NCBI GenBank assembly: GCA_020725145.1
Contig: DYFO01000001.1
Span: 46,855-110,854, forward strand
Source: Symbiobacterium thermophilum
GTDB lineage: Bacteria > Bacillota > Sulfobacillia > UBA995
Reading direction: 5' to 3'
DNA length: 64,000 bases
In this document: positions 7,118 through 26,779 of the stretch, piece after piece
Layout of the letters: each line of letters opens with the position of its first letter
Numbering within the stretch: the stretch's first letter is position 1
The notes under the pieces: generated by a model
Database searches by the model: none
Told to the model about the DNA's origin: nothing
What the model saw: the letters and a program-made list of their open reading frames with translations, nothing else
Made by a program: the position numbers and the translations under genes

Positions 7118-8125
7118 GTGATAAGCCGGGTGCGCGGGTGGACGCGCCGCCGAACTTATCTTGTCGTGGTCATCATCCTGCTATTGCTCACCGGAACCGC
7201 CGGCTATATGGTCTTCGAGGACCTGGGGCTGTTCGAGGCCTTGTACCTCGTTACCATGACCGTTTCCACCGTCGGCTACGGCGACGTCCACCCCGTGACC
7301 GTGGCGGGACGGATGCTGACGCTGCTCCTGGTTCCCCTGGGTCTCTTGGTTGTCTTCGGGCTGGGGGTGGCCACCGTAGCGGACAGGCTCGACGACCTGG
7401 TGTTAAGGGGCGGGGCAGGCGCCATGGAACGCAAGCTGGCCGGGCTCAAAGACCATTTCATCGTCTGTGGCTACGGGCGTCTTGGCCAGGCGACGGTAGC
7501 CACCTTGCGCAGGCTGGGTGGCCAGGTGGTAGCCATCGACCTCGATCGCGAACGCTTTGGGCAGGCCCCTTCCGGTTTTCTGTATCTGGTCGGGGATGCG
7601 CTGCGCGATGAGATCCTGCTCAAGGCGGGTATTCGACGGGCACGGGCCGTCATCTCTACCTTCAGCGACGACGTGCTGAACGTGTACCTTGCCCTTGAGG
7701 CGCGCGATCTTGCTCCCGACGTGGAAGTGCTCTCCACCGCCTCGGATCACGAGGCTACCCGCCGGCTCCAACAGGCAGGTGTCGACCGGGTGGTCTCGCC
7801 CCAGACGCTGGGAGGGGAGATGCTGGCCAAGAGCGCCTTCAACCCCGGAGTGTACCAGCTCATGTCTGACGTCATGTGGGGGGCGCTCCCCGCCGCCACC
7901 ATCGCCCAGGTAGTGGTAGCCCCATCCTCGGTGCTGGCCGGTCGCACCCTGGGCGATTTCCGGGAGCTCGGGGTGGCGGCCCGTGTGCTGCTCGTGCGCA
8001 CACCGAAATCCACGGTGCTTTCGCCGTCGGGCGATCTTCGGCTTGATCCGGGTTCGATCATGGTAGTGATCGGCGAGGGCCCGGAAGTTGCGAAGCTAGA
8101 GCGCCTTGCCGGGCCCAAGCTTTGA
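7118..8125 (+). CDS. Potassium channel with C-terminal RCK/TrkA-N domain (MthK/Kch-like)
   Basis: The TVGYGD selectivity filter sits between two TM helices. HFIVCGYGRLGQ is a Rossmann GxGxxG motif of a TrkA-N/RCK domain. GTG 7130 is an alternative start. Confidence 0.8.
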   Translation: MISRVRGWTRRRTYLVVVIILLLLTGTAGYMVFEDLGLFEALYLVTMTVSTVGYGDVHPVTVAGRMLTLLLVPLGLLVVFGLGVATVADRLDDLVLRGGAGAMERKLAGLKDHFIVCGYGRLGQATVATLRRLGGQVVAIDLDRERFGQAPSGFLYLVGDALRDEILLKAGIRRARAVISTFSDDVLNVYLALEARDLAPDVEVLSTASDHEATRRLQQAGVDRVVSPQTLGGEMLAKSAFNPGVYQLMSDVMWGALPAATIAQVVVAPSSVLAGRTLGDFRELGVAARVLLVRTPKSTVLSPSGDLRLDPGSIMVVIGEGPEVAKLERLAGPKL

Positions 8126-8128
8126 TCC

Positions 8129-8629
8129 CTAGGCCTGCCGCCACTGCACCTTCATAGGGACCAGCACCAGCGAGACGGCGGTGAAGGCCGCGAGCATTGC
8201 CAGGTCGGTCCGCAGCGCCCCCAGGGGTGCTCCACCCACCGCCAACCGCAGGGCCCGGGCTGCATAAGTGGTGGGGAAGGCCATGGAGGTGTAGCGCAGG
8301 AAAGCGGGCAACCGTTCCAGGGGGAGGTAGACGGGGGCGAAGAGGATGATAACCGTGTTCAATATTTGGGTGGCCAGGCTTGCCACCTGGGCGGTCGGGC
8401 TCCAAAAGCCGATCAATGCCCCCAGTCCCGACATGCCGTAGGCGGAAAGCACGAGCACGCCGCAGGCGGCCAGACCGAAGTGCAGGCCCAAAAGGTACCG
8501 GCCGGCGAGGCCGACCATCAGTACCGAGGGGAGGGTGAGCAACACGCCACGGGTGGCGATCACGGCAATGAAGACCCGCCGTGAGATGGGCAGAGCCGCG
8601 TAGTGTTCGAAAGCGTTCGTCTGCTTGAG
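8129..8629 (-). pseudogene. ABC-2 type transporter permease segment, in the same frame as the upstream ATPase ORF but separated from it by an in-frame TAG at 8630-8632
   Basis: Read-through translation gives ...LGQRLG*LKQTNAFEHYAALPISRRVFIAVIATRGVLLTLPSVLMVGLAG..., a continuous multi-TM permease. The first internal start (GTG) is at 8563. Confidence 0.45.
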
Positions 8630-9610
8630 CTAGCCCAGGCGCTGACCCAGGGAAAGCATGCCGCTCATGCTCACCGCGGTCACCAGGCTGCCGGTGACCG
8701 CAAAGGGTACCGCGTTGGGATCTGGCCACAGGAAATACACGAACGCGAGGTAGCTCAACGGAACGAAAGACACCTGAAAGACGTCGCCGGGTTCGGCGTA
8801 AAAGGCCCAGACCTCGGGGCGGAGGCGACGTGCTCCCGGCTCGGCGGCGAGCAGGGCCTCAAGTTCGGGCTTGTGGGCCCGTACTCTGAGCTCAATACGC
8901 ACCCGATCCGCCACCAGGCGCTTGAGTTCACCGGGCGTGCCCGAGGCCACGAGTTCCCCGCGGTCGATGAGTACGACCTGAGTGGCGACACTTTCCACTT
9001 CGGGAAGGTTATGGCTGACCACCAGGAAGGTTGCCCGGTCGCCGGCGTTGCGTTCGTGCAGGTAGTTCCAGAGCATCTGGCGGCGGCGGGGGTCGAGGTC
9101 GTTGGTTGGCTCATCGAGGATGGTGATGGGCCGGTTGGCCATGAACGCGGCCAGCAGGGCGGCCAGGCGACGTTCACCTCCGCTGAGCCGCCACATGAAC
9201 CTGTCGGCGAGGTCGCCGGCCTCAAACCGCTCCAGCAACGCGTCGCTCTGGCGGCGGGCCGCGCCGGCAGGTTGGCCGCGCAGCATGCCGGTCATCGTCA
9301 ACACCTCGCGGAAGCGGTGCGCCTGCAGTGCCAACACTTGCTGTCCGTAATACGCTACGTGCAGCGGCACGATCTCGGGCCGGGACACCACGTCCTGCCC
9401 CAGTAGACGAATGGAACCAGAGGTGGGGCGCAAAAGCCCCGCGAGCTGGCGGACGAAGGTCGTCTTGCCGGCGCCGTTCGGCCCCAGCACACCGAAGATG
9501 ACGCCGGCGGCGATGTCCAGGCTGATACGGTTGTTGGCCGGCGACTTCGTGCGGGGGTACACTTTGGTGAGATCGCGTACCGCGTAAGCCGGGCAGTCGA
9601 ACGTTGCCAT
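8630..9610 (-). CDS. ABC transporter ATP-binding protein; its C-terminus runs into membrane segments and is ended by an in-frame TAG
   Basis: ATG at 9610 follows a GAGGAGG RBS. The translation has a Walker A (GPNGAGKTT), a signature LSGGERRL and a Walker B (ILDEPTNDLD). The last ~50 aa (FVPLSYLAFVYFLWP...VTAVSMSGMLSLG) are hydrophobic. Confidence 0.75.
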   Translation of the reverse strand: MATFDCPAYAVRDLTKVYPRTKSPANNRISLDIAAGVIFGVLGPNGAGKTTFVRQLAGLLRPTSGSIRLLGQDVVSRPEIVPLHVAYYGQQVLALQAHRFREVLTMTGMLRGQPAGAARRQSDALLERFEAGDLADRFMWRLSGGERRLAALLAAFMANRPITILDEPTNDLDPRRRQMLWNYLHERNAGDRATFLVVSHNLPEVESVATQVVLIDRGELVASGTPGELKRLVADRVRIELRVRAHKPELEALLAAEPGARRLRPEVWAFYAEPGDVFQVSFVPLSYLAFVYFLWPDPNAVPFAVTGSLVTAVSMSGMLSLGQRLG

Positions 9611-9747
9611 CGCCTCCTCGGACCCAAAGTACAGACCGGCCATGCGTTTTCCCGACCGGCCCACCGCTTTTCTGCATACCCCGCAGGGTCCGGGGCAGGG
9701 ACGGCAGCCTGCAAGGCGAAGTTGGCCTTCGGGAGGAGGCAGGAAGC

Positions 9748-10644
9748 TTGGAGATCACCCTGGAGTGGCTGCGTGCCGCCTTTGAGCGGGACGGCTACGT
9801 GGCGGGAGAAGATGTTCTGGTCGCGGTTTATCTTGCCCTGCGGCTACACAAGCCGCTGCTGGTCGAAGGAGCGCCGGGAGTGGGCAAGACCGAGCTCGGC
9901 AAGGCGCTGGCCCGCATCCTGGACACCGAACTGATACGCCTGCAGTGCTACGAGGGGTTGGATGAGAACAAAGCCCTTTACGAGTGGAACTACCAGCGGC
10001 AGCTCTTGCGCATCCAGCTTGCCAGGGGGACCGCCGACGAGGACGCCATCGAGAGCGGGCTGTTCTCCGAAACCTACCTGCTCGAGCGGCCGTTGCTCAA
10101 GGCGATCCGGGCAGAGCGAACCCCGGTGCTGTTGATCGACGAGGTGGACAAGACCGACGAGGAGTTCGAGGCGTTCCTGTTCGAGGTGCTGTCCGACTTC
10201 ACCGTCTCCGTGCCCGAGCTGGGTACCTTGCGTGCGCGCCAGGTACCGGTGGTGGTGCTCACCAGCAACGGCGAGCGCGAGCTGTCCGACGGCCTAAGGC
10301 GCCGGTGCGTGTACCTTTACATCGACTTCCCCTCGGTGGAGAAGGAGGTCGAGATCATCTGCTTCCGCGCTCCCGAGGTCGGCGAGGCGCTTGCCCGCGA
10401 GATCGCCGAGGTCGTGCACCACCTTCGCTCGCAGCTGGAGCTGGCCAAGAAGCCGTCGATCGCCGAGACCCTGGACTGGGCACGGGCCCTGGTGGCGCTC
10501 GATGTCGACCGCCTTACCGACGCGCAGCTGCTAAGAACCGCCGGCTTTCTCCTCAAGCACCGCGACGACCTGGAAACCCTGCGAGAGGAGGCCCGCCAGG
10601 GGGGCATCGTGCACCGGGCACGCGGGGGTGCCGCCGGTGCCTGA
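9748..10644 (+). CDS. MoxR-family AAA+ ATPase (CoxD-like)
   Basis: TTG 9748 lies 9 nt after a GGGAGGAGG RBS. The ORF-track ATG at 9604 would overlap the divergent ABC gene. The translation has a Walker A (GAPGVGKTELGKALA) and a Walker B (VLLIDEVDK). Confidence 0.75.
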   Translation: MEITLEWLRAAFERDGYVAGEDVLVAVYLALRLHKPLLVEGAPGVGKTELGKALARILDTELIRLQCYEGLDENKALYEWNYQRQLLRIQLARGTADEDAIESGLFSETYLLERPLLKAIRAERTPVLLIDEVDKTDEEFEAFLFEVLSDFTVSVPELGTLRARQVPVVVLTSNGERELSDGLRRRCVYLYIDFPSVEKEVEIICFRAPEVGEALAREIAEVVHHLRSQLELAKKPSIAETLDWARALVALDVDRLTDAQLLRTAGFLLKHRDDLETLREEARQGGIVHRARGGAAGA

Positions 10645-11992
10645 AATCCCGCGGCGGGGGCTTGAGCAGGCTGCGGCGGCCGCCGGGCCCGAACTCGTGG
10701 AATGGAACCTCGTGCGCTTTGGCCACCTCTTGCGCGACATGGGGGTTCGCGTCTCCTCGGCAGAGCTTTTGGACGCGGTAAGGGCGCTTGGCCTGGTGGA
10801 CATGGGGTCGCGGGAGCTGGTGAAGGCGTCGCTGCGGGCCACCATGGTCAAGAGCGCCCGCGAGGTTCCGCTCTTCGACCAGGCCTTCGACCGCTTTTTC
10901 GTTGCGTTGGAGGAAAGACAAGCGCAGGCGGAGCTGGCACGGCGGCGCCGCGAGGAACTTGCGGCAAGGCGCGAGCAAGCCCGGCGTGAGCTCTGCTTTC
11001 AGGGCCGACCCCTTGGGCTGACTCCCGAGCAGCTGGACGGCTACCTTCGCCTCGGAGAAGAGGGGCAGCGGCGGCTGCGGGAGTTCCTGGACCAGAGCTC
11101 CTCCGGCGTGGGAGTCCACCCCGGCCTCAGTTCACTGGTGGAGAGCATCGTGAGGGGGCACCTGGCAAGGTGGCTACGGCAGGAAAACCTCTCTTTCCTT
11201 CCGGGAGATGAGGATGGTGGGTTGGGGCCCCCTCCCGCGGTGGGGCCGGACACCGGCCTGCTTCTGTACCAGGATCTGAAGCAGCTCGAAGGTCCGGAGC
11301 TGGAGCGGGCACTTAGGTTGGCGCGGCGCCTGGCACGACGCCTGGCCTCCCGCATCTCCCGCCGCCATCGTCTCGCGCCCTCGCGCGGGATGGTGGACTT
11401 CCGGCGGACCATCCGTCGCAACCTGCGTTTCGGCGGCGTGCCGTTGCGTCTTGCCTACCGCCGGCGCCGGGTCGGCAAGCCCCGGCTGCTTGTGGTGGCC
11501 GACGTTTCGGGTTCCATGGCCCGCTACTCTCGTTTCGTGCTGCAGTTCATCTACGGGCTCTCACGTGCCGTGGGAGGTGTGGAGATCTTCGCCTTCGCCG
11601 ACGACCTTGAGAGATTGACGCCCGCGTTCTTGGGCGCAAGACCCTTCGCACGCACCATGGCGGCCGTGATGGGGCAGGGCGACATCTGGGGAGGGGGAAC
11701 CGACCTGGCCCAAGCCCTGCAGACGTTGCGGTCGCGTCACGCCGCGTGTCTGACCCGCGACCGCGTGCTCCTCGTGGTAAGCGACACCAAGACGGTGAAG
11801 GTGGACGTCGCCGCCGCCGAGCTTGCCCGCATCGGCCGGATGGTCAGGGAAGTGCTGTGGCTGAACACGCTGCCGCGTGCCCGGTGGCGGGATCTGGCCT
11901 CGGTCCGGGCTTTTCAGTCCTCGGCGCGGATGTACGAATGCTACACTCTCGCCCACCTCGAGCGGGTGATGGCGCGGCAGGTACTCGGCTGA
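10628..11992 (+). CDS. VWA-domain protein (CoxE-like) paired with the MoxR ATPase
   Basis: GTG start overlaps the MoxR stop. The MIDAS motif VVADVSGSM is typical of CoxE/VWA proteins that partner with MoxR ATPases. Confidence 0.75.
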   Translation: MPPVPEIPRRGLEQAAAAAGPELVEWNLVRFGHLLRDMGVRVSSAELLDAVRALGLVDMGSRELVKASLRATMVKSAREVPLFDQAFDRFFVALEERQAQAELARRRREELAARREQARRELCFQGRPLGLTPEQLDGYLRLGEEGQRRLREFLDQSSSGVGVHPGLSSLVESIVRGHLARWLRQENLSFLPGDEDGGLGPPPAVGPDTGLLLYQDLKQLEGPELERALRLARRLARRLASRISRRHRLAPSRGMVDFRRTIRRNLRFGGVPLRLAYRRRRVGKPRLLVVADVSGSMARYSRFVLQFIYGLSRAVGGVEIFAFADDLERLTPAFLGARPFARTMAAVMGQGDIWGGGTDLAQALQTLRSRHAACLTRDRVLLVVSDTKTVKVDVAAAELARIGRMVREVLWLNTLPRARWRDLASVRAFQSSARMYECYTLAHLERVMARQVLG

Positions 11993-12075
11993 GGGCTTGA
12001 CTATTCGGTAGAAAGCCTAAAGGGGAAGGATTTTCGGGGCCGGGCTGAAATATAGGCGCGGGAGGGAAAGCAGCC

Positions 12076-12693
12076 GTGCAGGGCTCGCGCCGGGAAACCT
12101 ACGCGGCAGCGCTGGACATGGCCCGCCGCGACTTCGCGGCGCGTGACCCGGCGCAGGCCGCCCGCGAGGCAGGCGGGAGTTTCGACCCTGCGCGGTCCAC
12201 CTTGTTCCTCGATTACCTGGGAGTCCGTTATGGTGTACACTATCCTTCAGGCCGGGTGTTCGTGGCATCTTCCCCCGACCGTCCGGCCGCGGAAGTTCCG
12301 ACCGTGATCATGCTGCACTACCTGGTGAAAACGCGGGGAGCGACGCCTTCGGGCAGGTGGATCTCGTTCCGCGAGCTTCCCGGCGGCGACGTGTACATGC
12401 CCGCTTTCAACCGGCGGGCGGTCATCTGGCTGCTTCGCCGCTTCGGCCAGGCCCCCGAGCGGCTGCTCGAGGCGGCGCTCAGGCTGGGGGGAACCCGCCT
12501 GGACCTGGGCGATGTGGGTGCGACCTTGGATGTGTTGCCGCTTTTGCCCGTGGCCTTCGTCCTCTGGCGAGGCGACGACGAGGTTCCCGCCGGAGGCAAC
12601 GTGCTTTTCGACGCGACGGCGCCTTTGCACCTGGACACCGAGGACTTGGCGGCGGTCGCCGGCGAGGCGCTGGCCGCCCTCTCGAGGGCGTAG
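12076..12693 (+). CDS. DUF3786-like protein, a family typically linked to acs/CODH clusters
   Basis: The 205-aa protein starts at GTG after a GGGAGGGAAAG RBS. Size and position immediately upstream of cooC are characteristic of this family. Confidence 0.45.
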   Translation: MQGSRRETYAAALDMARRDFAARDPAQAAREAGGSFDPARSTLFLDYLGVRYGVHYPSGRVFVASSPDRPAAEVPTVIMLHYLVKTRGATPSGRWISFRELPGGDVYMPAFNRRAVIWLLRRFGQAPERLLEAALRLGGTRLDLGDVGATLDVLPLLPVAFVLWRGDDEVPAGGNVLFDATAPLHLDTEDLAAVAGEALAALSRA

Positions 12694-12776
12694 GAAGACT
12701 TAACATTCTGGATTCCGACAGGGCAGCCCAGGTTTATGTTACTTTTAGATCAGTCTAGACCCAGGGAGATTCACGG

Positions 12777-13589
12777 ATGAAGCTGGCGGTTGCCGGCAAG
12801 GGGGGCGTCGGCAAGACCACGCTTGCCGCCGGTCTGTGCTTTTTCTTGGCCCGGCGCGGCTTTGCCGTCTGGGCGGTGGACGCCGACCCCGACGTCAGCC
12901 TGGGCGCGGCCCTCGGATTCCCTCCCGCGTTGCTGGAGGCACAAAAGCCGCTCATCGAGATGAAGGAACTGGTCGAGGAACGCACCGGTCAGGGTTCCTA
13001 CCTCGTGCTCAACCCCCGCGTCGACGACCTGCTCGCCCGGTACTCGTGCCGCCAGGGCGACATCCGGCTGCTCAGAATGGGCGGGGTCAAGCCGGGAGGC
13101 AGCGAGTGTTACTGCAAGGAGTCCAGCTTCCTGCGGGCGGTGCTGGCGGCGCTCTTGCTCGGGGAGCATGACGCGGTGGTGCTGGACATGGGTGCGGGCA
13201 TCGAGGGCCTGACCCGGGGCACGGCCCGCGGGGTGGACCTTTTGCTGGTGGTTACCGAGCCCACCCCCACCAGCGCGCGGTCGGCCGAAGTCATCGCCGG
13301 TCTGGGTGCCGACCTTGGGATCGCGCGGGTCGGATTCGTCGCCAACAAGGTCCGCAACGCCCGCGAGGAGGAGTACCTGGGAACACGCCTTGGCCGGTCA
13401 CGGCTTCTGGGCTGCATTCGCCACGACACCGAGGTGCTCGACCTGGCCCTGGCCGACGGGGCGGGGCCGGTGGTGACGAGGTCGCGTGGGCTGTCCGCCG
13501 ATCTCGAGCAGGTGGGCAGAAGGGTTCTTGCGGAACTGGGGGAAGGGCCGGCCGGGCCGTCCCCGTCAACTTTTGGAAGGGGAGGTTAG
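12777..13589 (+). CDS. cooC: CODH nickel-insertion accessory ATPase CooC
   Basis: MKLAVAGKGGVGKTT is a deviant Walker A. It sits immediately upstream of the CODH catalytic subunit. RBS is GGGAGA. Confidence 0.85.
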   Translation: MKLAVAGKGGVGKTTLAAGLCFFLARRGFAVWAVDADPDVSLGAALGFPPALLEAQKPLIEMKELVEERTGQGSYLVLNPRVDDLLARYSCRQGDIRLLRMGGVKPGGSECYCKESSFLRAVLAALLLGEHDAVVLDMGAGIEGLTRGTARGVDLLLVVTEPTPTSARSAEVIAGLGADLGIARVGFVANKVRNAREEEYLGTRLGRSRLLGCIRHDTEVLDLALADGAGPVVTRSRGLSADLEQVGRRVLAELGEGPAGPSPSTFGRGG

Positions 13590-13592
13590 AAG

Positions 13593-15626
13593 ATGTCTCC
13601 GAGGCACCGGAACACCCAGCTGGGCTTCGGCGCGACGGCCAAGCAGCCGGGAGCCAGGCCGCGCCGCGAGGCCGATGCCCGGCACACGGTCGACCCCGCC
13701 GCCTGCGAGCTGCTCGAGGAGGCCAAGGCCAGGGGGATTGCAACCGCCTTCGACCGTTTCCTTGCCCAGCAACCGCAGTGCACCTTCGGACTGGACGGGC
13801 TGTGCTGCCGGGTGTGCATCCAGGGTCCCTGCCGCATCAACCCCAAGAAGGCGGGAATGGACAGGGGCATCTGCGGGGCGCGCGACTACACGATCGTCGC
13901 CCGCAACCTGGCGCGCGCCATAGCCGGCGGCACGGCCTGCCATTCCGACCACGGCCGCCACATCGCGCTGACCCTCTTGCACGTGGCGCAAGGAGAGATC
14001 GGCGAGGAGAACTACCGCATCACCGATGAGGACAAGCTGCGCCGGATCGCCCAGCGCATCGGCCTGGAGACCGCGGGCGTGCCGGTTGCCGAGCTGGCCC
14101 GCCGCGTGGCGCTGGCCGCCCTGGCGGACTACGGCCGCTATACCGATGAGCCATGCACCTGGCTTGACACCACCATCACCTCGGGCCGGCAGGCCAAGTT
14201 CCGCCACTGCGGGATCAACCCCTCGGCCATCGACCGCGCGGTCACCGAGATCATGAACCAGACGGCGATGGGCATGGACGCCGACCCGGTGAACATCATC
14301 TTCGGCGGGCTGCGCACCGCGCTGGCCGATTACACCGGCATGCACATCTCCACCGACCTGTCGGACGTGCTCTTCGGAACGCCGACCCCCATCGTGTCAC
14401 AGGCCAACCTCGGCGTGATCGATCCCGACTACGTGAACATCGCCACCCACGGGCACAACCCGACGCTTTCCAGCCTGGTGGTGGACGCCGCCGCGGCACT
14501 GGCCGAGGAGGCACGCCAGGCCGGGGCCAAGGGCGTCAACGTGGTGGGGATCTGCTGCACCGGCAACGAGCTTTTGATGCGCGACGGCGTGTACCTCGCC
14601 TCCAACGTCTCCGGTCAGGAGCTGGCGATCATGACCGGGGCCCTGGACGCCATGATCGTGGACGTACAGTGCATCATGCCGTCGGTGCGGGCGGTGGCCG
14701 AGTGCTATCACACCTGCGTGATCGCCACCAACCCGCTTGTGAAGATCCCCGGCACCTACCACGTGGACTTCCGCGAGGAGAAGGCCCTGGAGACGGCCAA
14801 GGAGATGGTCAGGCTGGCCATCCAGAGCTACGGCCGGCGCGACCCCGACAAGATCCGGACCACCGACCACCGGCAGGACGTGGTGGCCGGCTGGAGCCTG
14901 GAGGCCTTTACCGATCTCCTTGCCGGCCTCGACCGCGATCGCCCGGTGAAGGTGCTCACCGACGCCATCCTGGAGGGCGAGATACGCGGGGTCGCCCTTT
15001 TCGCCGGCTGCAACAACCTGAAGGTGGCGCAGGACAGCTCGCACCTGGCCATCCTGAAGGGTCTTTTGGCGAACGACGTCTTCGTGGTGGCCACCGGGTG
15101 CTCGGCGGGCGCGGCGGCCAAGGCCGGGCTCATGGCCCCCGGGTCGTTCGAGCAGTTCGGCGGCGAGGGGCTCAAGCGTTTCCTGGGCCGCCTGCGCGAC
15201 GCGGCGGGAACGAAGTACGGACTGCCCGCCGTCTTCCACTTCGGCTCGTGCGTGGACAACACGCGGGCGGCCGACCTGTGGACGGCCATGGCGCGGGAGC
15301 TGGGAGTGGACGTGCCCAAGGTCCCCTTCGTGGCCAGCGCGCCCGAGGCCATGCACGAGAAGGCGGTATCCATCGGCTCGTGGGTGGTGGCGATGGGCAT
15401 TCCCACCCACGTGGGGGTCATGCCCCACATCGAGGGGTCGGAGCTGGTCTACGGCGTGGGCACGCAGGTCGCCCACGACGTGTACGGCGGCTACTTCATC
15501 CTGGACCCCAATCCCGAGTCCGCGGTCGCCAGGCTGCTTGACGCCCTGGAGTACCGGGTATGGAAACTGCGCGTTCACCGCAAGGCGGCCGAACGCTTCG
15601 GCACCACCCTGTCCACGGTTTACTGA
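13593..15626 (+). CDS. acsA: Ni-dependent carbon monoxide dehydrogenase catalytic subunit (AcsA/CooS)
   Basis: The 677-aa protein has N-terminal Cys clusters (CTFGLDGLCCRVCIQGPCRI, CGA) and typical internal Cys/His ligands. Gene order matches the Moorella acs operon. Confidence 0.9.
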   Translation: MSPRHRNTQLGFGATAKQPGARPRREADARHTVDPAACELLEEAKARGIATAFDRFLAQQPQCTFGLDGLCCRVCIQGPCRINPKKAGMDRGICGARDYTIVARNLARAIAGGTACHSDHGRHIALTLLHVAQGEIGEENYRITDEDKLRRIAQRIGLETAGVPVAELARRVALAALADYGRYTDEPCTWLDTTITSGRQAKFRHCGINPSAIDRAVTEIMNQTAMGMDADPVNIIFGGLRTALADYTGMHISTDLSDVLFGTPTPIVSQANLGVIDPDYVNIATHGHNPTLSSLVVDAAAALAEEARQAGAKGVNVVGICCTGNELLMRDGVYLASNVSGQELAIMTGALDAMIVDVQCIMPSVRAVAECYHTCVIATNPLVKIPGTYHVDFREEKALETAKEMVRLAIQSYGRRDPDKIRTTDHRQDVVAGWSLEAFTDLLAGLDRDRPVKVLTDAILEGEIRGVALFAGCNNLKVAQDSSHLAILKGLLANDVFVVATGCSAGAAAKAGLMAPGSFEQFGGEGLKRFLGRLRDAAGTKYGLPAVFHFGSCVDNTRAADLWTAMARELGVDVPKVPFVASAPEAMHEKAVSIGSWVVAMGIPTHVGVMPHIEGSELVYGVGTQVAHDVYGGYFILDPNPESAVARLLDALEYRVWKLRVHRKAAERFGTTLSTVY

Positions 15627-15655: not shown

Positions 15656-17845
15656 GTGCCCGTCACGCTTGAGGAGTTCGAGAAGATCTACGAGGGGGCC
15701 ATCGAGGATCCCGGACAGGCTCCTCTGGGCCTTTTCAAGCAGGCATACGAAGGAGCGGTGATCGCCACCAGCTATGCCGAGATCCTGCTTGACCAGGCGC
15801 TCAGGACCCACGGGCCGGAGGCGCCGGTAGCCTATCCCGACACCGCCTACTACCTGCCGGTGATCACCGCGCTGAGCGGTGAGAAGGTTACCAAGCTGGG
15901 CGAGCTGGTACCGATCCTCAACCGCATGCGCGAGCAGATCCGCGAGGAGCTGACTTTCGAGAACGCGCGGCTTGCGGGGGAGGCGACGCTGTACGCCGCG
16001 GAGATCATCGAGGCACTGCGGTACCTGGAAGGCATCGGGACGCACCCCGAGCCCTGGACCGGGTTCTTGCCCGACCCCGTGGTGCGCCGCTACGGCATCA
16101 AGCTCGTGGACTGGACCATCCCCGGCCAGGCGGTGATCCTGGGGCGCGCCCGGACCTCGAAGGACGCGGCCAAACTGGTCTCGGAACTGATGGGCAAGGG
16201 GTTCATGATCTTCGCCTCCGACGAGATCATCGAACAGCTCATCGAGGAAGACGTCAAACTGGGTATCGACTACATCGTGTTCCCCCTGGGTGCTTTTACC
16301 CAGATCATCCACGCCGTCAACTACGCGCTGCGGGCCGGACTGGCCTTCGGCGGCATCCCGCCCGGGCAGCGCGAGGAGGCGCGCGACTACCAGCGCCGGC
16401 GCGTGCGGGCTTTCGTGCTGCACCTGGGCGAACTCGACGAGGTCAAGATCGCCGCGCACTTCGGCGCCATCTTCCTGGGCTTCCCGGTGATCACCGACCA
16501 GGTGGTACCCGAGCAGCTGAAAGACTGGTGGGTGTCCCATCCCGACTACGAGGACATGGTCGCCTACGCCATGGAACTGCGGGGCATCAAGCTCACCACC
16601 ACCAGGATCGACATCCCGCTCAACTTCGGACCGGCCTTCGAGGGCGAGACCATCCGCAAAGAGGACGTCCATGTGGAGATGGGCGGCGGCCGGTCGGTGG
16701 CCTTTGAGCTATGCCGGATGGTCGGCCCCGAGGACATCAAGGACGGCCGCATAGAGGTATTCGGGCCCGAGATCGACGCCTTCAAGGAGGGCGACAGGGT
16801 CCCCTTCGGCCTGATCGTCGAGATCTACGGCCGCAAGATGCAGGAGGACTTCGAGGGAGTGCTGGAGCGCCGCATCCACTACTTCATCAACTACGCCGAG
16901 GGTCTTTGGCACGTGGCGCAGCGCGACCTCGCCTGGATGCGGGTGTCCCGCGAGGCGTTCCGGAAGGGCTTCCGCTTCCGCCACTTCGGTGAGCTCCTGA
17001 TCGCGAAGTTCAAGGAGGAGTTCCCCGCCATCGTCGATCGCGTCCAGGTCAAGATCTACACCGAGGAAGCCAAGGTCAGGGAACTGGCCCGCGAGGCCCG
17101 GGCCAAGTACCACGCCCGCGACGAGCGGATGCGCGGCCTGACCGACGAGGCGGTGGAGGAGTTTTACTCCTGTCTGCTCTGCCAGTCCTTCGCGCCCAAC
17201 CACGCCTGCATCATCACCCCCGAGCGGGTGGGCCTGTGCGGCGCGGTGACCTGGCTGGACGGCAAGGCCTCCTTCGAGATCAACCCCACCGGTCCCAACC
17301 GGCCGATCGTCAAGGGACCGGCCATTGACGAGGTCAAGGGCATGTGGCCCAACGTCAACGACGCCGTCCGCGTGGCCACCAACGGCCATTTGCAGGAGGT
17401 CAACATCTACACGCTGATGGATCGCCCCATGACTTCCTGCGGGTGCTTTGAGGCGATCATGGCCATCCTGCCGGAGGCCAACGGCATCATGATCACCACC
17501 CGCGAGCACAAGGGCAGCACCCCTTGCGGCATGACCTTCTCCACGCTGGCGGGGATGGTCGGCGGCGGTGTGCAGACCCCCGGGTTCATGGGTATCGGCC
17601 GCTCCTACATCGTCAGCCGCAAGTTCATCACCGCCGACGGTGGTCTGGCGCGGGTGGTGTGGATGCCGCGCGAGCTCAAGGACTTTCTGCGCGCCGACCT
17701 GGTCGCCCGGGCACAGGAACTGGGGCTGGGCGAGGACTTCATCGACAAGATCGCCGACGAGTCGGTGGGGGAAACGGTGGAGGCGATCCTTCCCTACCTG
17801 GAGGAGAAGGGACACCCCGCCCTGAGCATGCCCTCCCTCATCTGA
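15656..17845 (+). CDS. acsB: Acetyl-CoA synthase catalytic subunit (AcsB, A-cluster)
   Basis: GTG at 15656 lies 9 nt after a GGGAGG RBS. The ~730-aa protein ends with the A-cluster region ...CQSFAPNHACIITPERVGLCGA...CGCFE. It follows acsA. Confidence 0.9.
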   Translation: MPVTLEEFEKIYEGAIEDPGQAPLGLFKQAYEGAVIATSYAEILLDQALRTHGPEAPVAYPDTAYYLPVITALSGEKVTKLGELVPILNRMREQIREELTFENARLAGEATLYAAEIIEALRYLEGIGTHPEPWTGFLPDPVVRRYGIKLVDWTIPGQAVILGRARTSKDAAKLVSELMGKGFMIFASDEIIEQLIEEDVKLGIDYIVFPLGAFTQIIHAVNYALRAGLAFGGIPPGQREEARDYQRRRVRAFVLHLGELDEVKIAAHFGAIFLGFPVITDQVVPEQLKDWWVSHPDYEDMVAYAMELRGIKLTTTRIDIPLNFGPAFEGETIRKEDVHVEMGGGRSVAFELCRMVGPEDIKDGRIEVFGPEIDAFKEGDRVPFGLIVEIYGRKMQEDFEGVLERRIHYFINYAEGLWHVAQRDLAWMRVSREAFRKGFRFRHFGELLIAKFKEEFPAIVDRVQVKIYTEEAKVRELAREARAKYHARDERMRGLTDEAVEEFYSCLLCQSFAPNHACIITPERVGLCGAVTWLDGKASFEINPTGPNRPIVKGPAIDEVKGMWPNVNDAVRVATNGHLQEVNIYTLMDRPMTSCGCFEAIMAILPEANGIMITTREHKGSTPCGMTFSTLAGMVGGGVQTPGFMGIGRSYIVSRKFITADGGLARVVWMPRELKDFLRADLVARAQELGLGEDFIDKIADESVGETVEAILPYLEEKGHPALSMPSLI

Positions 17846-17877
17846 CGGATGCGGCCCAAGCGAAAGGAGAGGGGAAC

Positions 17878-19221
17878 GTGGGCCTGACCGGTCTTGATAT
17901 CTACAAGCTGCTTCCCAAGACCAACTGCGGCGAGTGCGGCCCTCCGACCTGCCTGGCCTTCGCCATGGCGCTGGCCGCGGGCAAGGCCTCGCTGGAGTCC
18001 TGCCCGCATGTCTCCGAGGAGGCCAAGGCGGCGCTGGGTGCCGCCGCCGCTCCGCCCATAAGGTTGGTCAAGGTAGGCGGCTCCGGCGGAGCGCGGGAGG
18101 TGGAGCTCGGCGACGAGCAGGTCATCTTCCGCCACGAGAAGACCTTCTATCACCCCACGGCGGTGGCGGTGGCGGTACGCGACGACCTCGGCGACGCCGA
18201 ACTCGGCCGGCGCCTGGAGTACCTGAAAGACCTGGCTTTTGAACGCGTGGGGTTGACCTACCGGCTGGACATGGTGGCGCCCACCTTCGCGTCCGGCGAC
18301 CCCGAACGCTTCGCCGGCGTCGCCAAGGCGGCCGCGGCGACCGGTCTTGCGCTGCTACTTTGCGCCGAGGACCCGCGGGCGGCGAAGGCGGCGCTCGAGG
18401 CCGTGGGCGACCGCCGTCCCCTCGTGTACGCGGCGACCTCCGCCAACCTCTCGGAGATGGCGGAGCTTGCCCGGAGCCACCGGGTACCGCTGGCGGTACG
18501 GGGCGCCGATCTCGACGCGACCGCCGCGTTGGCCGAGAAGCTGGCCGGCATGGAGCTCAAGGACCTGGTGCTGGACAGCGGGGCGCGTGAACCTGCGGCG
18601 GTCCTGGCCGACCTCACCCAGATCCGCCGGCTGGCCATCAAGCGGCGGTTCAGGCCGCTCGGTTACCCCACCATTGCCTTCCCGCAGGCCCAGGAGCCGC
18701 TGGCCCAGATGCTGGAGGCGGCCCTGTACGTGGGCAAGTACGCCAGCGTGGTGGTGGTCTCCGCCGAGGCCCGGGAGTGCCTCTTGCCGCTTTTGACCTG
18801 GCGGCAGAACGTCTTTACCGATCCCCAAAAGCCGATTCAGGTAGAGCCGAAGCTCCACATGGTGGGAACCCCTACTCCGGACTCACCGCTTTTCGTGACC
18901 ACCAACTTCTCCCTCACCTACTATACGGTGGAGGGAGAGGTGGCGGCTTCCAGGGTTCCCTCCTACATCCTCCCCGTGAACACCGAGGGGACCTCGGTGC
19001 TCACGGCCTGGGCGTCAGGCAAGTTCTCGGCCGAAAGCATCGCCGAAGCCCTGGCCACCTCGGGCGTGGCCGAACGGCTGCGCCACCGCGAGGTGATCAT
19101 CCCCGGCTACGTGGCGGTGCTCTCCGGCAAGCTGCAGGAGGCATCGGGCTGGAAGGTGGTCGTGGGGCCGCGCGAGGCCGCCGGCATACCGAGCTTCATA
19201 AAGAGCAAGCTCGCCAGCTAA
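17878..19221 (+). CDS. acsC: Corrinoid iron-sulfur protein large subunit (AcsC)
   Basis: GTG 17878 follows a GAAAGGAGAGGGG RBS. The N-terminal [4Fe-4S] motif is CGECGPPTCLAFAMALAAGKASLESCP. Length is ~447 aa. Confidence 0.9.
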   Translation: MGLTGLDIYKLLPKTNCGECGPPTCLAFAMALAAGKASLESCPHVSEEAKAALGAAAAPPIRLVKVGGSGGAREVELGDEQVIFRHEKTFYHPTAVAVAVRDDLGDAELGRRLEYLKDLAFERVGLTYRLDMVAPTFASGDPERFAGVAKAAAATGLALLLCAEDPRAAKAALEAVGDRRPLVYAATSANLSEMAELARSHRVPLAVRGADLDATAALAEKLAGMELKDLVLDSGAREPAAVLADLTQIRRLAIKRRFRPLGYPTIAFPQAQEPLAQMLEAALYVGKYASVVVVSAEARECLLPLLTWRQNVFTDPQKPIQVEPKLHMVGTPTPDSPLFVTTNFSLTYYTVEGEVAASRVPSYILPVNTEGTSVLTAWASGKFSAESIAEALATSGVAERLRHREVIIPGYVAVLSGKLQEASGWKVVVGPREAAGIPSFIKSKLAS

Positions 19222-19231
19222 AGGAGCGTTA

Positions 19232-21166
19232 ATGGGCAGGCACACCGTCGTCTTCCAACCGGACGGGGTCAGCGTCAAGGTGGCGGAGGGAACCGAGCTC
19301 GGCCGCGCCGCCGCCATGGCCGGCATCCAACTCAAGAGCACCTGCGGAGGCGAGGGCACCTGCGGCCTCTGCGCGGTCAAGGTGCTGTCCGGGCGCTTCG
19401 CCACCCGGGAGGGCCGTATCTTGCCGGAGCGGCGCCGTAAGGGGATGGTGCTTGCCTGCCGTACGTGGGTTCAGGGCGACATGGAGGTGGAGATTCCGTC
19501 CACGTCGCGCCTGGCCGCCCACCAGGTGCTGGTGGAGGAGGGCGCCCGCCGGGAGATCGCCTTTGAGCGGGAGCTCGACCCCGTCGGCCGCTACGGGTTC
19601 CATCCCGTGGGCCACAAGATCCTGGCGGTGCTCGATCCGCCGACCCTCACCGACAACGCCTCGGACCTGTCGCGCCTGCTGACGCGGTTCCGCCGCGAGG
19701 ACGGACGGGCGGCTCCGGCCATCGGCCTGACCGCCCTGCGGCGGTTGCCCCGGGCGCTTCGGGAGGGCAAGTGGCGGGTGACCGTCACCCTGGTCGACGC
19801 GGGCGGGACGGAGGAGATGGTCCGGGTCGAACCCGGCGACAGCCGTCGGCCCCCTTACGGCCTGGCCGTCGACATCGGCACCACTTCCTGCGTCGTCCAC
19901 CTGGTGGACCTGCGCTCGGGATTGGCGGTCGACCGCCGGGGGAGCTTCAACCGGCAGGCCCGTTACGGCGACGACGTGATCACCCGCATCATCCACGCCG
20001 CCGAACGGCCCGAGGGCCTGTCCGAGCTGAATGCCGCGGTGCTGGAGACAATCAACGCGCTGGTGGACGAGCTCCTGGCGGCCAACGCGCTGGAGGCGGA
20101 GGACCTGATCGCCGCCGCGGTGGCCGGCAACACCACCATGACGCACCTCTTCCTGTCCATTCCCCCGGATCACATCCGGCTGGAGCCCTACCTTCCCGCC
20201 GCCGTGAGCTTCCCCGTGGTGCGGGCGGGCGAGCTGGGTCTCAAGCTCAACCCGGATGCGCCGGTCTACGTCTTTCCGGCGGTCGCAAGCTACGTCGGAG
20301 GAGACATCGTCTCCGGGGTGCTCCTGACCGACCTGGCGCATGCCGCGCCGGTGACCCTCTTCATCGACGTGGGCACCAACGGTGAGATCGTGCTGGGGAA
20401 CCGCGACTGGCTGGTGGCCTGCGCCTGTTCCGCCGGTCCCTGCTTCGAGGGGGGCGGGATCACCTGCGGCATGCGGGCTACCCCGGGAGCGATCGAGCGG
20501 GTGCGTGTGGAACCCGGGGGGCGGGAGGTCCGCCTGCAGACGGTAGGAGGCATGCCACCTGCCGGGATCTGCGGTTCGGGCATGATCGATGCCCTGGCGG
20601 CGCTGCACGAGGCGGGCGTGATCGACAGAAGCGGCAACTTCCGCGACCTGGACACTCCCCGGCTGCGGGAGGGAGAGGAAGGTCCCGAGTTCGTGCTCGC
20701 CGCGGCCCACGAGACCGGTGGCGAACGCGATATCGTGCTCACCGCGGCCGACCTCAAGAACCTGATCCGGGCCAAAGGAGCCATCTACGCCGGCATCCGC
20801 TCGCTGCTGGCGGCGGTGGAGCTCGGGGTTCAGGCCATCGAACGTGTGTACATCGCGGGAGGCTTTGGCAACTACCTTGATGTCCGCGACGCCATCCGGG
20901 TCGGCATGCTGCCCGACCTGGAGCTGGAGCGGTACCGGTTCGTGGGTAACAGCTCGGTCAAGGGAGCCCGCCTGGCGCTTGTGTCGCGGCCGGCGTGGGC
21001 CGAGGCGGAACGCATCGCCCGTCGCCTGACCTACCTCGAGCTCTCGGCAAGCTCCAGTTACATGGAGGAGTTCGTCTCGGCGCTTTTCCTGCCGCATACC
21101 GACCTTGACCAGTTCCCTTCGGTCCGGGACGCGGAGTTGGGGGTGAGACCGTGCCCCGGAAGGTAG
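19232..21166 (+). CDS. Reductive activator of the corrinoid Fe-S protein (RACo/orf7): [2Fe-2S] ferredoxin plus ASKHA ATPase
   Basis: The N-terminal plant-type ferredoxin motif is CGGEGTCGLCAVKV. The ~640-aa protein lies between acsC and acsF, as in Moorella. Confidence 0.85.
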   Translation: MGRHTVVFQPDGVSVKVAEGTELGRAAAMAGIQLKSTCGGEGTCGLCAVKVLSGRFATREGRILPERRRKGMVLACRTWVQGDMEVEIPSTSRLAAHQVLVEEGARREIAFERELDPVGRYGFHPVGHKILAVLDPPTLTDNASDLSRLLTRFRREDGRAAPAIGLTALRRLPRALREGKWRVTVTLVDAGGTEEMVRVEPGDSRRPPYGLAVDIGTTSCVVHLVDLRSGLAVDRRGSFNRQARYGDDVITRIIHAAERPEGLSELNAAVLETINALVDELLAANALEAEDLIAAAVAGNTTMTHLFLSIPPDHIRLEPYLPAAVSFPVVRAGELGLKLNPDAPVYVFPAVASYVGGDIVSGVLLTDLAHAAPVTLFIDVGTNGEIVLGNRDWLVACACSAGPCFEGGGITCGMRATPGAIERVRVEPGGREVRLQTVGGMPPAGICGSGMIDALAALHEAGVIDRSGNFRDLDTPRLREGEEGPEFVLAAAHETGGERDIVLTAADLKNLIRAKGAIYAGIRSLLAAVELGVQAIERVYIAGGFGNYLDVRDAIRVGMLPDLELERYRFVGNSSVKGARLALVSRPAWAEAERIARRLTYLELSASSSYMEEFVSALFLPHTDLDQFPSVRDAELGVRPCPGR

Positions 21167-21903
21167 CGGTGGCGGGTAAGGGGGGTACGGGGAAGACCAC
21201 GCTCGCCTCCCTGCTTATCCGGGTGCTGCTGGAGCAGGATCGGGGCACCGTGCTGGCCGTCGATGCCGATCCCAACTCCAACCTGCACGAGGCCCTGGGC
21301 CTCAAGGCGGAGCACACCATCGCCGACATCCTCGAGGAGGCGAAGGCGCCGGGACCGTCGCCCGCCGGCATGTCCAAGCACATGCTGGTCGAGTACCGCC
21401 TGCGCTCCATCCTGGTGGAGTCGCCGCGTCTGGATCTCCTGGTCATGGGAACCCCTGAAGGTCCGGGATGTTACTGCTATCCCAACGACCTTCTCAGGTC
21501 CCACATGGCCGGCCTGGCCCGGGCCTACGACTACCTCGTGGTCGACAACGAGGCGGGGCTCGAGCACCTGTCGCGCCGGGTGGCGCAGGACATGGACCTT
21601 ACCCTGGTCACCAGCGATGCCACCGTCCGCGGCATCCGCACCGCCGGGCGGGTACGGCAGCTGGTCGGCAACCTGGAACTTGACCCTGGTCGCCTGTGGC
21701 TGGTGGTGAACCGGTTGGAGGGAGACCTCGGCCCCCTGGAGGCCGAGATCGCCGCTACGGGGCTTGAACTGGCGGGGACCATACCCCAGGACCCTCTGGT
21801 GTCGCGGTACGATCTGGAGGGCAGGCCCCTTCGAGACCTCCCGGCCTCGTCGGCCGCCCTGCAGGCGGTGCGGGAGATAGCCGCGAGGGTTGGCTTAACC
21901 TGA
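21151..21903 (+). CDS. acsF: Second CooC-type P-loop ATPase (AcsF)
   Basis: [13 protein letters not shown] is the Walker A. GTG start overlaps the RACo 3' end. Confidence 0.85.
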
Positions 21904-21922
21904 GGGAAAGGAGACGGGGTTG

Positions 21923-23699
<1,777 letters not shown>

Positions 23700-26297: not shown

Positions 26298-26779
26298 GTG
26301 CGACTTCCGACAAGACCCCGCGAGTGGTCAACCCGCGTTTCAAGTACGAGGTGGCCGACCGTCCGGGAGGACAGAACCTCAAGGTGTGCTTTGGCTGCGG
26401 TGTCTGTACCGCCGGGTGCCCGGTGGCCGAGATCGATACCGCCTACAGCCCCCGCCGGATCATCCGGCTCGTGCTGCTGGGAATGGAAGAGGAAGTACTC
26501 AGCTCGGAGCTGATCTGGCTGTGCACCACCTGTTTCACCTGTTACGCCAGGTGCCCGCAGGACGTCAAGTTCACCGACGTGATGGGGGTGCTGCGCGAGC
26601 TGGCGGTGGAACGCGGTTACGTGGACCCCTCCTTCCCCGCCCGTCTGCGCCACATGGATGAGCTGGTGCAGACCTTGCGTCGCGACGCCGTGCGCCGGAT
26701 GGCCGCCGACCGGCGCCGGGCGGTGCCGGTCGCCGTTGACGAGCTCAAGGAGCTTGTGCGGGAGGTCGCCGATGCCTGA
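26294..26779 (+). CDS. hdrC: HdrC-like 2x[4Fe-4S] protein
   Basis: ATGA overlap with the previous gene. Two motifs are present: CFGCGVCTAGCP and CTTCFTCYARCP. Confidence 0.7.
   Translation: MSATSDKTPRVVNPRFKYEVADRPGGQNLKVCFGCGVCTAGCPVAEIDTAYSPRRIIRLVLLGMEEEVLSSELIWLCTTCFTCYARCPQDVKFTDVMGVLRELAVERGYVDPSFPARLRHMDELVQTLRRDAVRRMAADRRRAVPVAVDELKELVREVADA

Follow-up and report, generated by a model that had tools for sequence, protein, structure and literature searches.

The closest described relatives of the locus analyzed here are pairs made of a MoxR-class AAA+ ATPase and a protein with a VWA domain. In Oligotropha (Afipia) carboxidovorans, CoxD and CoxE assemble the metal centre of the Mo-Cu CODH in the already folded enzyme (PMC4240915, PMC3471820, PMC7159879), and both proteins are described as membrane-bound (PMC3471820, PMC4240915). 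NorQ/NorD, which serve FeB insertion into cNOR, and the Rubisco activase CbbQ/CbbO are likewise two-gene systems in which a MoxR AAA+ ATPase is combined with a VWA/MIDAS adaptor and the folded client is remodelled. AAA+ plus VWA is also the architecture of ATP-driven chelatase motors (bioRxiv 10.64898/2026.07.21.739949), and in CobS/CobT and BchI/BchD the AAA+ motor works with a VWA/MIDAS partner for metal insertion. The textbook maturation set of Ni-CODH/ACS consists of CooC, AcsF, CooJ and CooT; MoxR-VWA proteins stand outside it, and the literature searched contains no published link between MoxR-VWA and Ni-CODH/ACS.

In the window, by which we mean the whole 64,000-nt stretch of DNA that was analyzed, such a pair lies at the head of a run of + strand genes in the order MoxR-VWA_CoxE-DUF3786-cooC-acsA-acsB-acsC-RACo-acsF-acsD-acsE. 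The preliminary description had placed the MoxR, VWA and DUF3786 genes directly 5' of cooC-acsA on the same strand, and the ORFs together with Pfam and NCBIfam matches confirm this placement, with E-values for the gene identities far past chance expectation. The CooC1-type Ni-insertion ATPase (12777..13589; Pfam CbiA/ParA family) is followed by AcsA, the Ni-CODH catalytic subunit (13593..15626; Prismane, 2.6e-156; TIGR01702, 728 bits against a cutoff of 478), and by AcsB, the acetyl-CoA synthase (15656..17845; NF040764, 1062 bits). The start of AcsB is approximate, the longest ORF beginning at 15560; its orthologue in the closest relative, locus L003 (66% VWA identity), has 728 aa. AcsC, the large subunit of the corrinoid Fe-S protein (Pfam FeS and CdhD), spans 17872..21166 together with the corrinoid activator RACo (19232-21166; Pfam Fer2 and RACo_linker/middle/C_ter). 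Next come an AcsF-type Ni-insertion ATPase (21151..21903) and AcsD (CdhD family), which occupies 21920..23699 with AcsE, a 263-aa ORF (22908-23699) that served as a neighbourhood-search query. The operon was also said to encode two CooC-type ATPases, and it does: in a neighbour-joining (NJ) tree the product of 12777-13589 falls in the CooC1 clade and that of 21151-21903 in the AcsF clade. CooC1 and AcsF of the textbook set are both encoded in the window operon.

The first gene of the pair (9748..10644, + strand) encodes a CoxD-like, MoxR-class AAA+ ATPase of 298 aa. It starts with TTG, 7 nt past the Shine-Dalgarno sequence GGGAGGAGG, and the longest possible ORF would begin at 9604. Membership in the MoxR class is borne out by the domain layout, one AAA+ module of ~300 aa that carries Walker A (GxxGxGKT), Walker B (hhhhDE) and conserved arginines; the motifs GAPGVGKT (Walker A), LLIDEVD (Walker B) and RRRC show at least 95% conservation among 66 orthologues. 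Pfam AAA_5 (3e-10), AAA (2e-9) and AAA_3 match the protein, and a PDB sequence search returned midasin AAA modules as the sole matches. The second gene (10628..11992, + strand) overlaps the first by 17 nt and encodes a CoxE-type VWA protein of 454 aa, which matches Pfam VWA_CoxE (PF05762) at 1.4e-38 (133 bits, cutoff 26.4) over profile positions 1-220 of 222. Its MIDAS residues D292-x-S294-x-S296, T358 and D386 are intact and are invariant in 36 homologues. The AF2 model (pLDDT 79.5) consists of helices from 22 to 246 and an alpha/beta VWA domain from 286 to 453; Foldseek with this model retrieved generic VWA/MIDAS domains, including the midasin MIDAS and NorD of the NorQD complex, and a PDB search with the VWA profile gave no match. 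The best curated matches of the two proteins are to the NCBIfam families MadB (a AAA ATPase, near full length, 5.4e-82) and MadC (over the VWA domain, 3.3e-33), although both are far from the family cutoffs (275 versus 475 bits and 115 versus 600 bits, respectively). For a role of MadB/MadC as AAA/VWA proteins, the literature searched gave only an unrelated lantibiotic dehydratase.

As in the CoxD/CoxE system, a MoxR AAA+ gene is followed by a VWA_CoxE gene whose product combines a MIDAS with a helical N-terminal domain, and the earlier reading of the pair as CoxD/CoxE-like maturation helpers is a reasonable analogy, to NorQ/NorD as well. The locus nevertheless differs from these systems as follows: First, coxLMS, coxF and coxG are missing from the annotated ORFs of the window. 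Neighbour clustering showed that coxLMS (encoding the xanthine-oxidase-family Mo enzyme) and coxF/coxG are absent from 80 related loci too. A hidden Mo-CODH or other xanthine-oxidase-family client was also considered for the window, and none was found among the annotated ORFs. Second, in contrast to the membrane-bound CoxD and CoxE, neither protein of the window has a predicted transmembrane segment by a crude test, the maximum 19-residue Kyte-Doolittle hydropathy being 1.31 for MoxR and 1.29 for the VWA protein. Third, the host belongs to an anaerobe-type, high-GC, Bacillota-like lineage, and the candidate client would be a Ni-Fe-S enzyme rather than a Mo-Cu enzyme. Finally, in comparison with NorQ/NorD and CbbQ/CbbO, the ATPase falls outside the CbbQ/NorQ/GvpN subfamily, scoring only 27 bits against the GvpN model, the VWA protein has a different N-terminal domain, and nor and cbb genes are not nearby.

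The MoxR-VWA pair is a free-standing two-gene module that is common in anaerobic Bacillota and has flanks varying by clade. We surveyed its neighbourhood in 80 species-level (species-representative) genome loci. MoxR lies directly 5' of the VWA gene in 73 of these, and the window MoxR is 59-79% identical to orthologues in this position. The flanks are mostly housekeeping or other genes, for example recA-rny-ymdB-spoVS, RNase J-fabZ-metK-recD2-comF, or SpoU with endonuclease III and DNA polymerase III alpha, and a PerR-like Fur regulator heads the list of neighbours (19 loci), followed by DNA polymerase III alpha (14) and a SpoU methylase (12). Some neighbours belong to the Crp family; these were considered as possible CooA proteins and set aside, their NCBIfam matches being to generic CRP/FNR only and under the cutoff. 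The classes of neighbours track the VWA phylogeny, and the associations therefore reflect few independent events, about 5-7.

The acs operon adjoins the pair in the window, L003 and L034 only, and the exact MoxR-VWA-DUF3786-cooC-acs layout is confined to the window's lineage. The preliminary description had looked to conservation of this neighbourhood for support and had counted occurrence of the pair without acs in close relatives as evidence against a role in CODH/ACS assembly; the survey gave some of each. L003 keeps the order MoxR-VWA-DUF3786-cooC-acsA-acsB-acsC-RACo-acsF-acsD exactly. Among the 80 loci, an acs operon lies within 10 kb of the pair only in L034, 3.5 kb downstream, with FixC/FixX and a reverse-strand HD gene in between. 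On the other hand, relatives at 45-50% VWA identity (L004/5, L016, L019, L038 and L057) have no acs genes beside the pair, and no acs, cooC or other C1 gene is near it in 67 of the 80 loci. In L003, L004/5, L016 and L038 the pair keeps its synteny with a 947-aa gene that lies upstream in the window; the genes between this gene and MoxR differ between L003 and the window. Among these loci acs is downstream of the pair in L003 only; since the synteny with the 947-aa gene is kept in L004/5, L016 and L038 without acs downstream, the acs adjacency appears to be a secondary juxtaposition.

A more widely distributed association is that with AcsF. In 10 of the 80 loci a lone Ni-insertion ATPase of the AcsF clade adjoins the pair outside any acs operon, in at least three different arrangements: 23-1100 nt downstream in Syntrophomonadaceae/Dethiobacteria loci, upstream of MoxR in Acididesulfobacillus (L035), and in the order Crp-AcsF-DsrMK-like-MoxR in L040. 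The lone 253-aa proteins are 49-55% identical to the window AcsF, with which they share the motif GPGCYCYPN, and 30-37% identical to CooC1, and in the NJ tree they group with the window AcsF and the AcsF of L150 and L124, not with CooC1. The trio MoxR-VWA-AcsF is kept across 42-72% VWA identity. Two further loci of the 80 have other C1 genes beside the pair: in the acetogen Fuchsiella it is flanked by DUF3786 paralogues, and in L046 it is preceded by a gene for an AcsE-like methyltransferase. Altogether 13 of the 80 loci have a Wood-Ljungdahl-related neighbour, compared with our rough estimate of less than 1% for the chance of a CooC-family gene within ~10 genes of any gene. The recurring link to acsF hints that the pair may help to mature CODH/ACS.

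These data have to be weighed against the explanation that anaerobic Bacillota use the pair as a MoxR-VWA chaperone for general or housekeeping purposes, with a client unrelated to CODH/ACS (for example in stress repair or complex assembly), its position beside acs being a neutral rearrangement and the acsF adjacency inherited synteny in a few clades. The housekeeping flanks in most of the loci, the leading place of the PerR-like regulator among the neighbours and the agreement of neighbour classes with phylogeny all fit this explanation, as do the conserved flank in the window's subclade, which is upstream rather than downstream, and the strong conservation of MoxR, as expected for a core function. 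It accounts less well for the recurrence of AcsF, acs, DUF3786 or AcsE-like genes beside the pair in at least five arrangements and in distant lineages, far above the level for a random gene, or for the survival of the MoxR-VWA-AcsF order at 42% VWA identity. We regard a housekeeping role as a serious possibility, though less likely than not. Set against the free-standing nature of the pair, the gene order of L003 and the recurrence of AcsF make a link to ACS/CODH maturation plausible, and we put it no higher.

A second alternative is a role on the cobalt/corrinoid side of the pathway, in which the pair would be a CobS/CobT- or BchI/BchD-like motor for cobamide synthesis or for loading cobamide into AcsCD rather than for Ni insertion. 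The pair shares its AAA+ and VWA architecture with the chelatase motors, and the window operon encodes AcsC, AcsD and RACo. In Thermacetogeniaceae/Syntrophaceticus the pair is directly 5' of genes for a UbiE-type methyltransferase, CobU, (CobD), CobS and CobC, and a paralogous pair comes after these; in Thermacetogenium phaeum, a Wood-Ljungdahl organism, it sits with cobamide genes and not with acs, and B12-radical-SAM genes occur near the pair in L004/5. However, the cobamide linkage is a single synteny block in one clade, and the neighbour that recurs elsewhere is AcsF, a Ni-insertion ATPase and not a cobalt enzyme. Unlike CobNST and BchHID, moreover, the window has no large CobN/BchH subunit, its ORFs of at least 900 aa being only the 947-aa gene, an HdrA-like fusion and an SMC-like protein, and unlike BchD the VWA protein is not fused to a AAA module. 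A cobalt/corrinoid role is therefore improbable. Still far less probable is that the pair is central to a conflict (anti-phage) or signalling system with no tie to metabolism, such as the MoxR-vWA systems of Kaur et al. 2020, in which CoxD-CoxE-derived MoxR-vWA pairs act as switches (PMC7159879): a third component (VMAP/iSTAND) and effector domains are lacking, the AF2 model of the VWA protein showing only a helical N-terminal and a VWA domain, the pair is stably placed across Bacillota in a core-like position and not in variable islands, and the defence-system reading was rejected on the PADLOC outcome, which was blank for the VWA protein and gave marginal P-loop-level matches only for MoxR.

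The third gene (12076..12693, + strand) encodes a DUF3786 protein of 205 aa that matches PF12654 at 1.7e-48 (164.9 bits, cutoff 27) over profile positions 1-172 of 176. The family proves to be common in Wood-Ljungdahl clusters: of 39 metagenomic loci with a length of 5 kb or more, 14 have the gene beside acs, cooC or metF, and its commonest company is metF, acsE and acs genes. MoxR and VWA genes are absent from all 80 metagenomic DUF3786 loci. Starting from acs gives the same picture: every DUF3786 locus that has acs genes lacks the MoxR-VWA pair. DUF3786 is an accessory gene that occurs widely in Wood-Ljungdahl/C1 clusters and is separate from the pair, and its earlier grouping into a trio with MoxR and VWA does not hold. 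All of the 120 matches listed in a profile search for fusions are single-domain proteins of ~210 aa and therefore give no domain-fusion clue to function. The fold is predicted confidently; no solved homologue was found, a PDB search with the DUF3786 profile giving no match, and the literature searched has nothing written on the family. The region is best read as two independent modules, the MoxR-VWA pair and DUF3786. Because the supposed trio is two unrelated modules, the proposal of an extra chaperone layer for CODH/ACS is only partly supported: the exact order in L003 and the AcsF genes beside the pair in 10 of 80 loci agree with it, whereas the free-standing character of the pair and the single locus of 80 with acs within 10 kb do not.

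The two modules are also separated by a spacer of 83 nt (11993..12075, + strand). In an alignment with L003 it contains the conserved blocks TGACTATT.G.T.GAA and GGAGGGA, the latter being the Shine-Dalgarno sequence of DUF3786, and has neither a terminator nor a sigma-70 consensus. A second, AT-rich spacer of 83 nt lies 5' of cooC (12694..12776, + strand). Here the window and L003 have long conserved blocks in common, TTAAcATTCTGGATTCC...TTTATGTTA..TTTAGAT, while the flanking proteins are just 60-70% identical; the spacer has no Rfam match and no sigma-70 consensus, and may serve the acs operon as a regulatory or promoter region. The conserved AT-rich spacers 5' of DUF3786 and 5' of cooC suggest that the two may be separate regulatory sites. 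A scan of 9300-13700 for consensus promoters and terminators turned up no promoter; the one terminator-like site is weak and falls inside the VWA gene. Rfam gave no match over the whole window or, in a permissive search, over 9300-13000, and therefore no NiCo or cobalamin riboswitch.

From the likeness to characterized MoxR-VWA systems, we infer a mechanism in which the AAA+ ATPase and the CoxE-type VWA/MIDAS protein, as a translationally coupled two-gene unit across anaerobic Bacillota, would act as an ATP-driven remodeller of metalloenzymes. By this analogy the VWA protein would grip the client protein via its MIDAS site, and the AAA+ ring would spend ATP on loosening the already folded metalloenzyme, so that its metal site could be filled or repaired. 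The likeliest client would be the acetyl-CoA synthase/CODH complex, on which AcsF and possibly CooC would act together with the pair. In the window's lineage the pair has come to lie directly 5' of DUF3786-cooC-acs, where it might also be co-expressed with acs. We consider this remodeller reading plausible, with confidence that falls a little short of even. A stronger form of it, which we hold to be rather unlikely, is that the clade of the pair represents an unrecognised ACS/Ni-CODH maturation or repair factor that opens the folded enzyme, or frees the labile Ni site of wrongly bound metal, for nickel to be loaded by AcsF and/or CooC. If this is so, the CooC/AcsF model would gain accessory proteins of a third class. 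Ni delivery to the C- and A-clusters of CODH/ACS is only partly understood, and fully active enzyme is hard to obtain in foreign hosts. If the pair does not work with AcsF, the locus would show nothing more unusual than a mobile chaperone pair that landed beside a large operon; if it does, the pair would be a missing helper whose inclusion in expression constructs could raise the activity of recombinant CODH/ACS in gas fermentation and in the engineering of CO2 fixation.

In the window, the genes for a MoxR-class AAA+ ATPase (9748-10644, + strand; Pfam AAA_5 and AAA matches), a CoxE-type VWA protein (10628-11992, + strand; Pfam VWA_CoxE, 1.4e-38) and a DUF3786 protein (12076-12693, + strand; Pfam, 1.7e-48) follow one another in high-GC sequence (66-74% across the window). 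The ATPase gene has a TTG start 7 nt downstream of GGGAGGAGG, and the VWA gene overlaps it by 17 nt. A Moorella-type acs operon (cooC, acsA, acsB, acsC, RACo, acsF, acsD and acsE) begins 83 nt past DUF3786, and Hdr/Mvh-like genes and metF come after it. The two CooC-family genes of the window fall in separate clades in our tree, CooC1 and AcsF. Since all three genes were found on the + strand with the acs operon after the 83-nt spacer, the layout given in the preliminary description, together with its two CooC-type ATPases, is confirmed. Elsewhere in the window, the Hdr/Mvh-like block downstream of acsE contains a 1519-aa ORF (26658-31217) whose translation, read by eye, resembles several HdrA/GltD-type flavoprotein and Fe-S modules fused together. 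Two genes of the HpaB family (4-hydroxyphenylacetate hydroxylase / 4-hydroxybutyryl-CoA dehydratase; 36766-38241 and 62180-63625) lie downstream of the Wood-Ljungdahl (WL) cluster, and a B12-binding radical-SAM gene is located at 44269-45951. On the reverse strand at 8129-9664, an ABC ATPase ORF (8630-9664) has a hydrophobic tail at its end and its neighbour (8129-8563) matches just the C-terminal half of the ABC-2 permease profile; an assembly error, a fused gene or a frameshift might explain this.

Between the pair, DUF3786 and cooC, neither a terminator nor a sigma-70 consensus was found, and no known RNA element was found in the window. Both 83-nt spacers are AT-rich and share blocks with L003, a MAG locus that is the closest relative of the window, well above the conservation of the flanking coding DNA; judged from the sequence, these blocks are candidate regulatory sites. 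The most striking block lies right before cooC (TTAAcATTCTGGATTCC...TTTATGTTA..TTTAGAT). This spacer (12694-12776; L003 counterpart, 5856-5930), which has long blocks identical to L003, holds the near-palindrome TGGATTCCG, gave no match to Rfam families or the sigma-70 consensus, and could act as an operator or promoter for the acs genes. If the blocks are regulatory, expression of DUF3786 and of the acs operon would probably not require read-through from the MoxR-VWA genes.

By sequence, the pair belongs to the MoxR AAA+ class and the Pfam family VWA_CoxE. The ATPase retains its Walker A motif (GAPGVGKT), its Walker B motif (LLIDEVD) and its arginine cluster, each at least 95% conserved among 66 orthologues, and the MIDAS residues of the VWA protein (D292, S294, S296, T358 and D386) are all present and invariant in 36 homologues. 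In the AlphaFold model of the VWA protein (pLDDT 79.5), the N-terminal half is helical and the C-terminal VWA domain is alpha/beta; CoxE-type vWA proteins typically have a helical N-terminal domain (PMC7159879). The nearest solved relatives of the VWA domain in a structure search were VWA/MIDAS domains, including those of midasin and of NorD in the NorQD complex. The pair resembles CoxD/CoxE in combining a MoxR-class ATPase with a MIDAS-containing CoxE-type VWA protein, but the cox genes are missing here and no membrane segment was predicted in either protein; therefore, it is not the CoxD/CoxE system proper. MadB is the best curated match of the ATPase (5.4e-82), but the ATPase and VWA scores both fall short of the family cutoffs, so the pair is not a member of NCBIfam MadB/MadC; literature searches returned no functional description of these families.

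A search with the VWA protein returned about 80 full-length homologues sharing 36-66% identity; most are from Bacillota, among them Thermacetogenium, Desulfofundulus, Peptococcaceae and Syntrophomonadaceae. A scan of one genome per species gave 80 loci, the best-scoring 80 of at least 490 confirmed matches, which we searched with the window proteins and whose neighbouring ORFs we clustered; ORF calling was naive, trees were neighbour-joining with BLOSUM distances, and many loci came from MAGs with short flanks, at least 4 kb being available on both sides in only 42. In 73 of these best 80 the ATPase gene immediately precedes the VWA gene, indicating that the pair is a stable unit, and its flanks vary by clade, tracking the VWA tree. 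The linkage to acs suggested by the preliminary description is retained in L003 (VWA identity 66%), where the order is identical from MoxR through acsD, and a 2,963-nt contig apparently carries both a VWA gene (64% identical) and a DUF3786 gene (62% identical). Among the best 80 of at least 490 matches, only L034 (1/80 species genomes) has an acs operon within 10 kb of the pair, with FixC, FixX and a reverse-strand HD gene in between, and the next relatives (L004/5, L016, L019, L038 and L057; 45-50% VWA identity) have no acs downstream. A 947-aa protein gene of the window (4145-6988; no Pfam match; N-terminal hydrophobic, signal-like segment) has homologues upstream of the pair in L003, L004/5, L016 and L038. 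The conserved context in the subclade of the window is thus the upstream side, and acs appears to be a secondary neighbour. The 947-aa gene homologue adjoins a heavy-metal (HMA) P-type ATPase in L004/5, L016 and L038. FixC/FixX, another recurring redox-enzyme neighbour, directly follows the pair in two relatives (L034, 11463-13181; L007, 9952-13737, also with EtfB/EtfA).

A DUF3786 profile scan of metagenomic contigs yielded 80 loci, in none of which was a MoxR or VWA homologue found. ORF clustering gave as neighbours MetF (16 loci), NuoE-like (14), NuoF-like (12), AcsE (10), AcsC (8), CooC (8), AcsB (7), formate dehydrogenase (6) and AcsA (5), and among the 39 loci that span 5 kb or more, 14 contain acs, cooC, metF or metV genes. 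An archaeal DUF3786 gene (7001-7630 of L170, a Methanomassiliicoccus luminyensis-type contig) is accompanied by Fhs, FolD, MetF, DUF5981 (presumably MetV-like) and Hdr/FlpD-like genes with no acs genes nearby, which ties DUF3786 to the folate methyl branch and not to Ni enzymes. Together, the metagenomic and L170 neighbours point to a common C1/WL-cluster accessory gene leaning towards the methyl branch. The preliminary description placed DUF3786 in a chaperone-like layer for Ni-CODH/ACS; its position beside cooC-acsA in the window is confirmed, and no evidence points to a nickel-chaperone function. A full-text literature search found DUF3786 mentioned in one unrelated paper alone.

The commonest neighbour of the pair in the best 80 of at least 490 matches is a PerR-like Fur-family regulator (19 loci), which may point to a connection with oxidative stress or metals; DNA polymerase III alpha (14 loci), SpoU methylase (12), UbiE-type methyltransferase (11) and CobS (9) are also frequent neighbours of the pair. 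In most of the 19 loci, from several clades, the regulator is 0.06-3 kb downstream of the pair (for example L027 11439-11876, L024 6218-6652 and L045 11957-12391), L040 being an exception at about 9 kb upstream. In Thermacetogenium phaeum and relatives, the pair has recA-rny-ymdB-spoVS-type housekeeping genes on one side and a cobamide nucleotide-loop cluster on the other. That the pair serves an unrelated housekeeping or stress client is a serious contender, although we consider it somewhat improbable. In Thermacetogenium/Syntrophaceticus-type genomes, the cobamide cluster (UbiE-type methyltransferase, CobU, CobD, CobS and CobC, plus IMPDH) is bracketed by two paralogous AAA-VWA_CoxE pairs (L001 9056-18149; L006 9078-20942; L172 9080-17982); a cobalt or corrinoid role for the pair is nevertheless unlikely. 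MgtC follows the second pair in these genomes. A defence or signalling switch is highly improbable, as PADLOC gave no meaningful match.

A CooC/AcsF-family ATPase adjoins the pair in 12 loci, including the window and L003, and in 10 of the 80 (best 80 of at least 490) a CooC-family ATPase of 251-262 aa does so outside any acs operon. These lone ATPases are 49-55% identical to the window AcsF versus 30-37% to CooC1, have the motif GPGCYCYPN in common with AcsF, and cluster in the tree with AcsF proteins from bona fide acs operons. Their arrangements vary by lineage among the 10 loci: in Syntrophomonadaceae/Dethiobacteria-type loci AcsF lies 23-1100 nt past the VWA gene on the same strand, an order that persists at just 42-45% VWA identity between genomes; where annotated, the genes after AcsF in this arrangement are housekeeping (in L026, RNase J, FabZ, MetK, RecD2 and ComF); in L035 (Acididesulfobacillus) AcsF is upstream of MoxR; and L040 has the order Crp, AcsF, DsrMK-like, MoxR, VWA. 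An AcsE-like pterin methyltransferase is just upstream of the pair in L046, and in the acetogen Fuchsiella alkaliacetigena (L069) two DUF3786 paralogues (7210-7860 and 18241-18897) lie either side of the pair (9043-11422), with no acs genes within 10 kb of it. A WL-related neighbour thus occurs in 13 of the best 80 loci (16%) of at least 490, in about 5-7 independent arrangements; the chance expectation, roughly estimated and not computed, is below 1% of loci for a family at 1-3 copies per genome.

In characterised MoxR-VWA systems, the VWA MIDAS site grips the client and the AAA+ ring remodels it. NorQ/NorD, CbbQ/CbbO and chelatase motors act in a similar manner. CoxD/CoxE assemble the Mo-S-Cu site in folded CO dehydrogenase (PMC4240915, PMC3471820). 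By analogy, the likeliest role of the pair here would be ATP-driven loosening of a folded metalloenzyme, and its neighbourhoods suggest acetyl-CoA synthase/CODH as the best candidate client, acting with AcsF; we favour this reading tentatively, at a little under an even chance. Specifically, before nickel is loaded by AcsF, the pair may open ACS or strip wrongly bound metal from the labile Ni site of ACS. A full-text literature search found no paper tying MoxR/VWA or CoxD/E-like proteins to Ni-CODH/ACS, CooC or AcsF. The pair is of the known MoxR AAA+/VWA_CoxE kind, and what is possibly new is its client.
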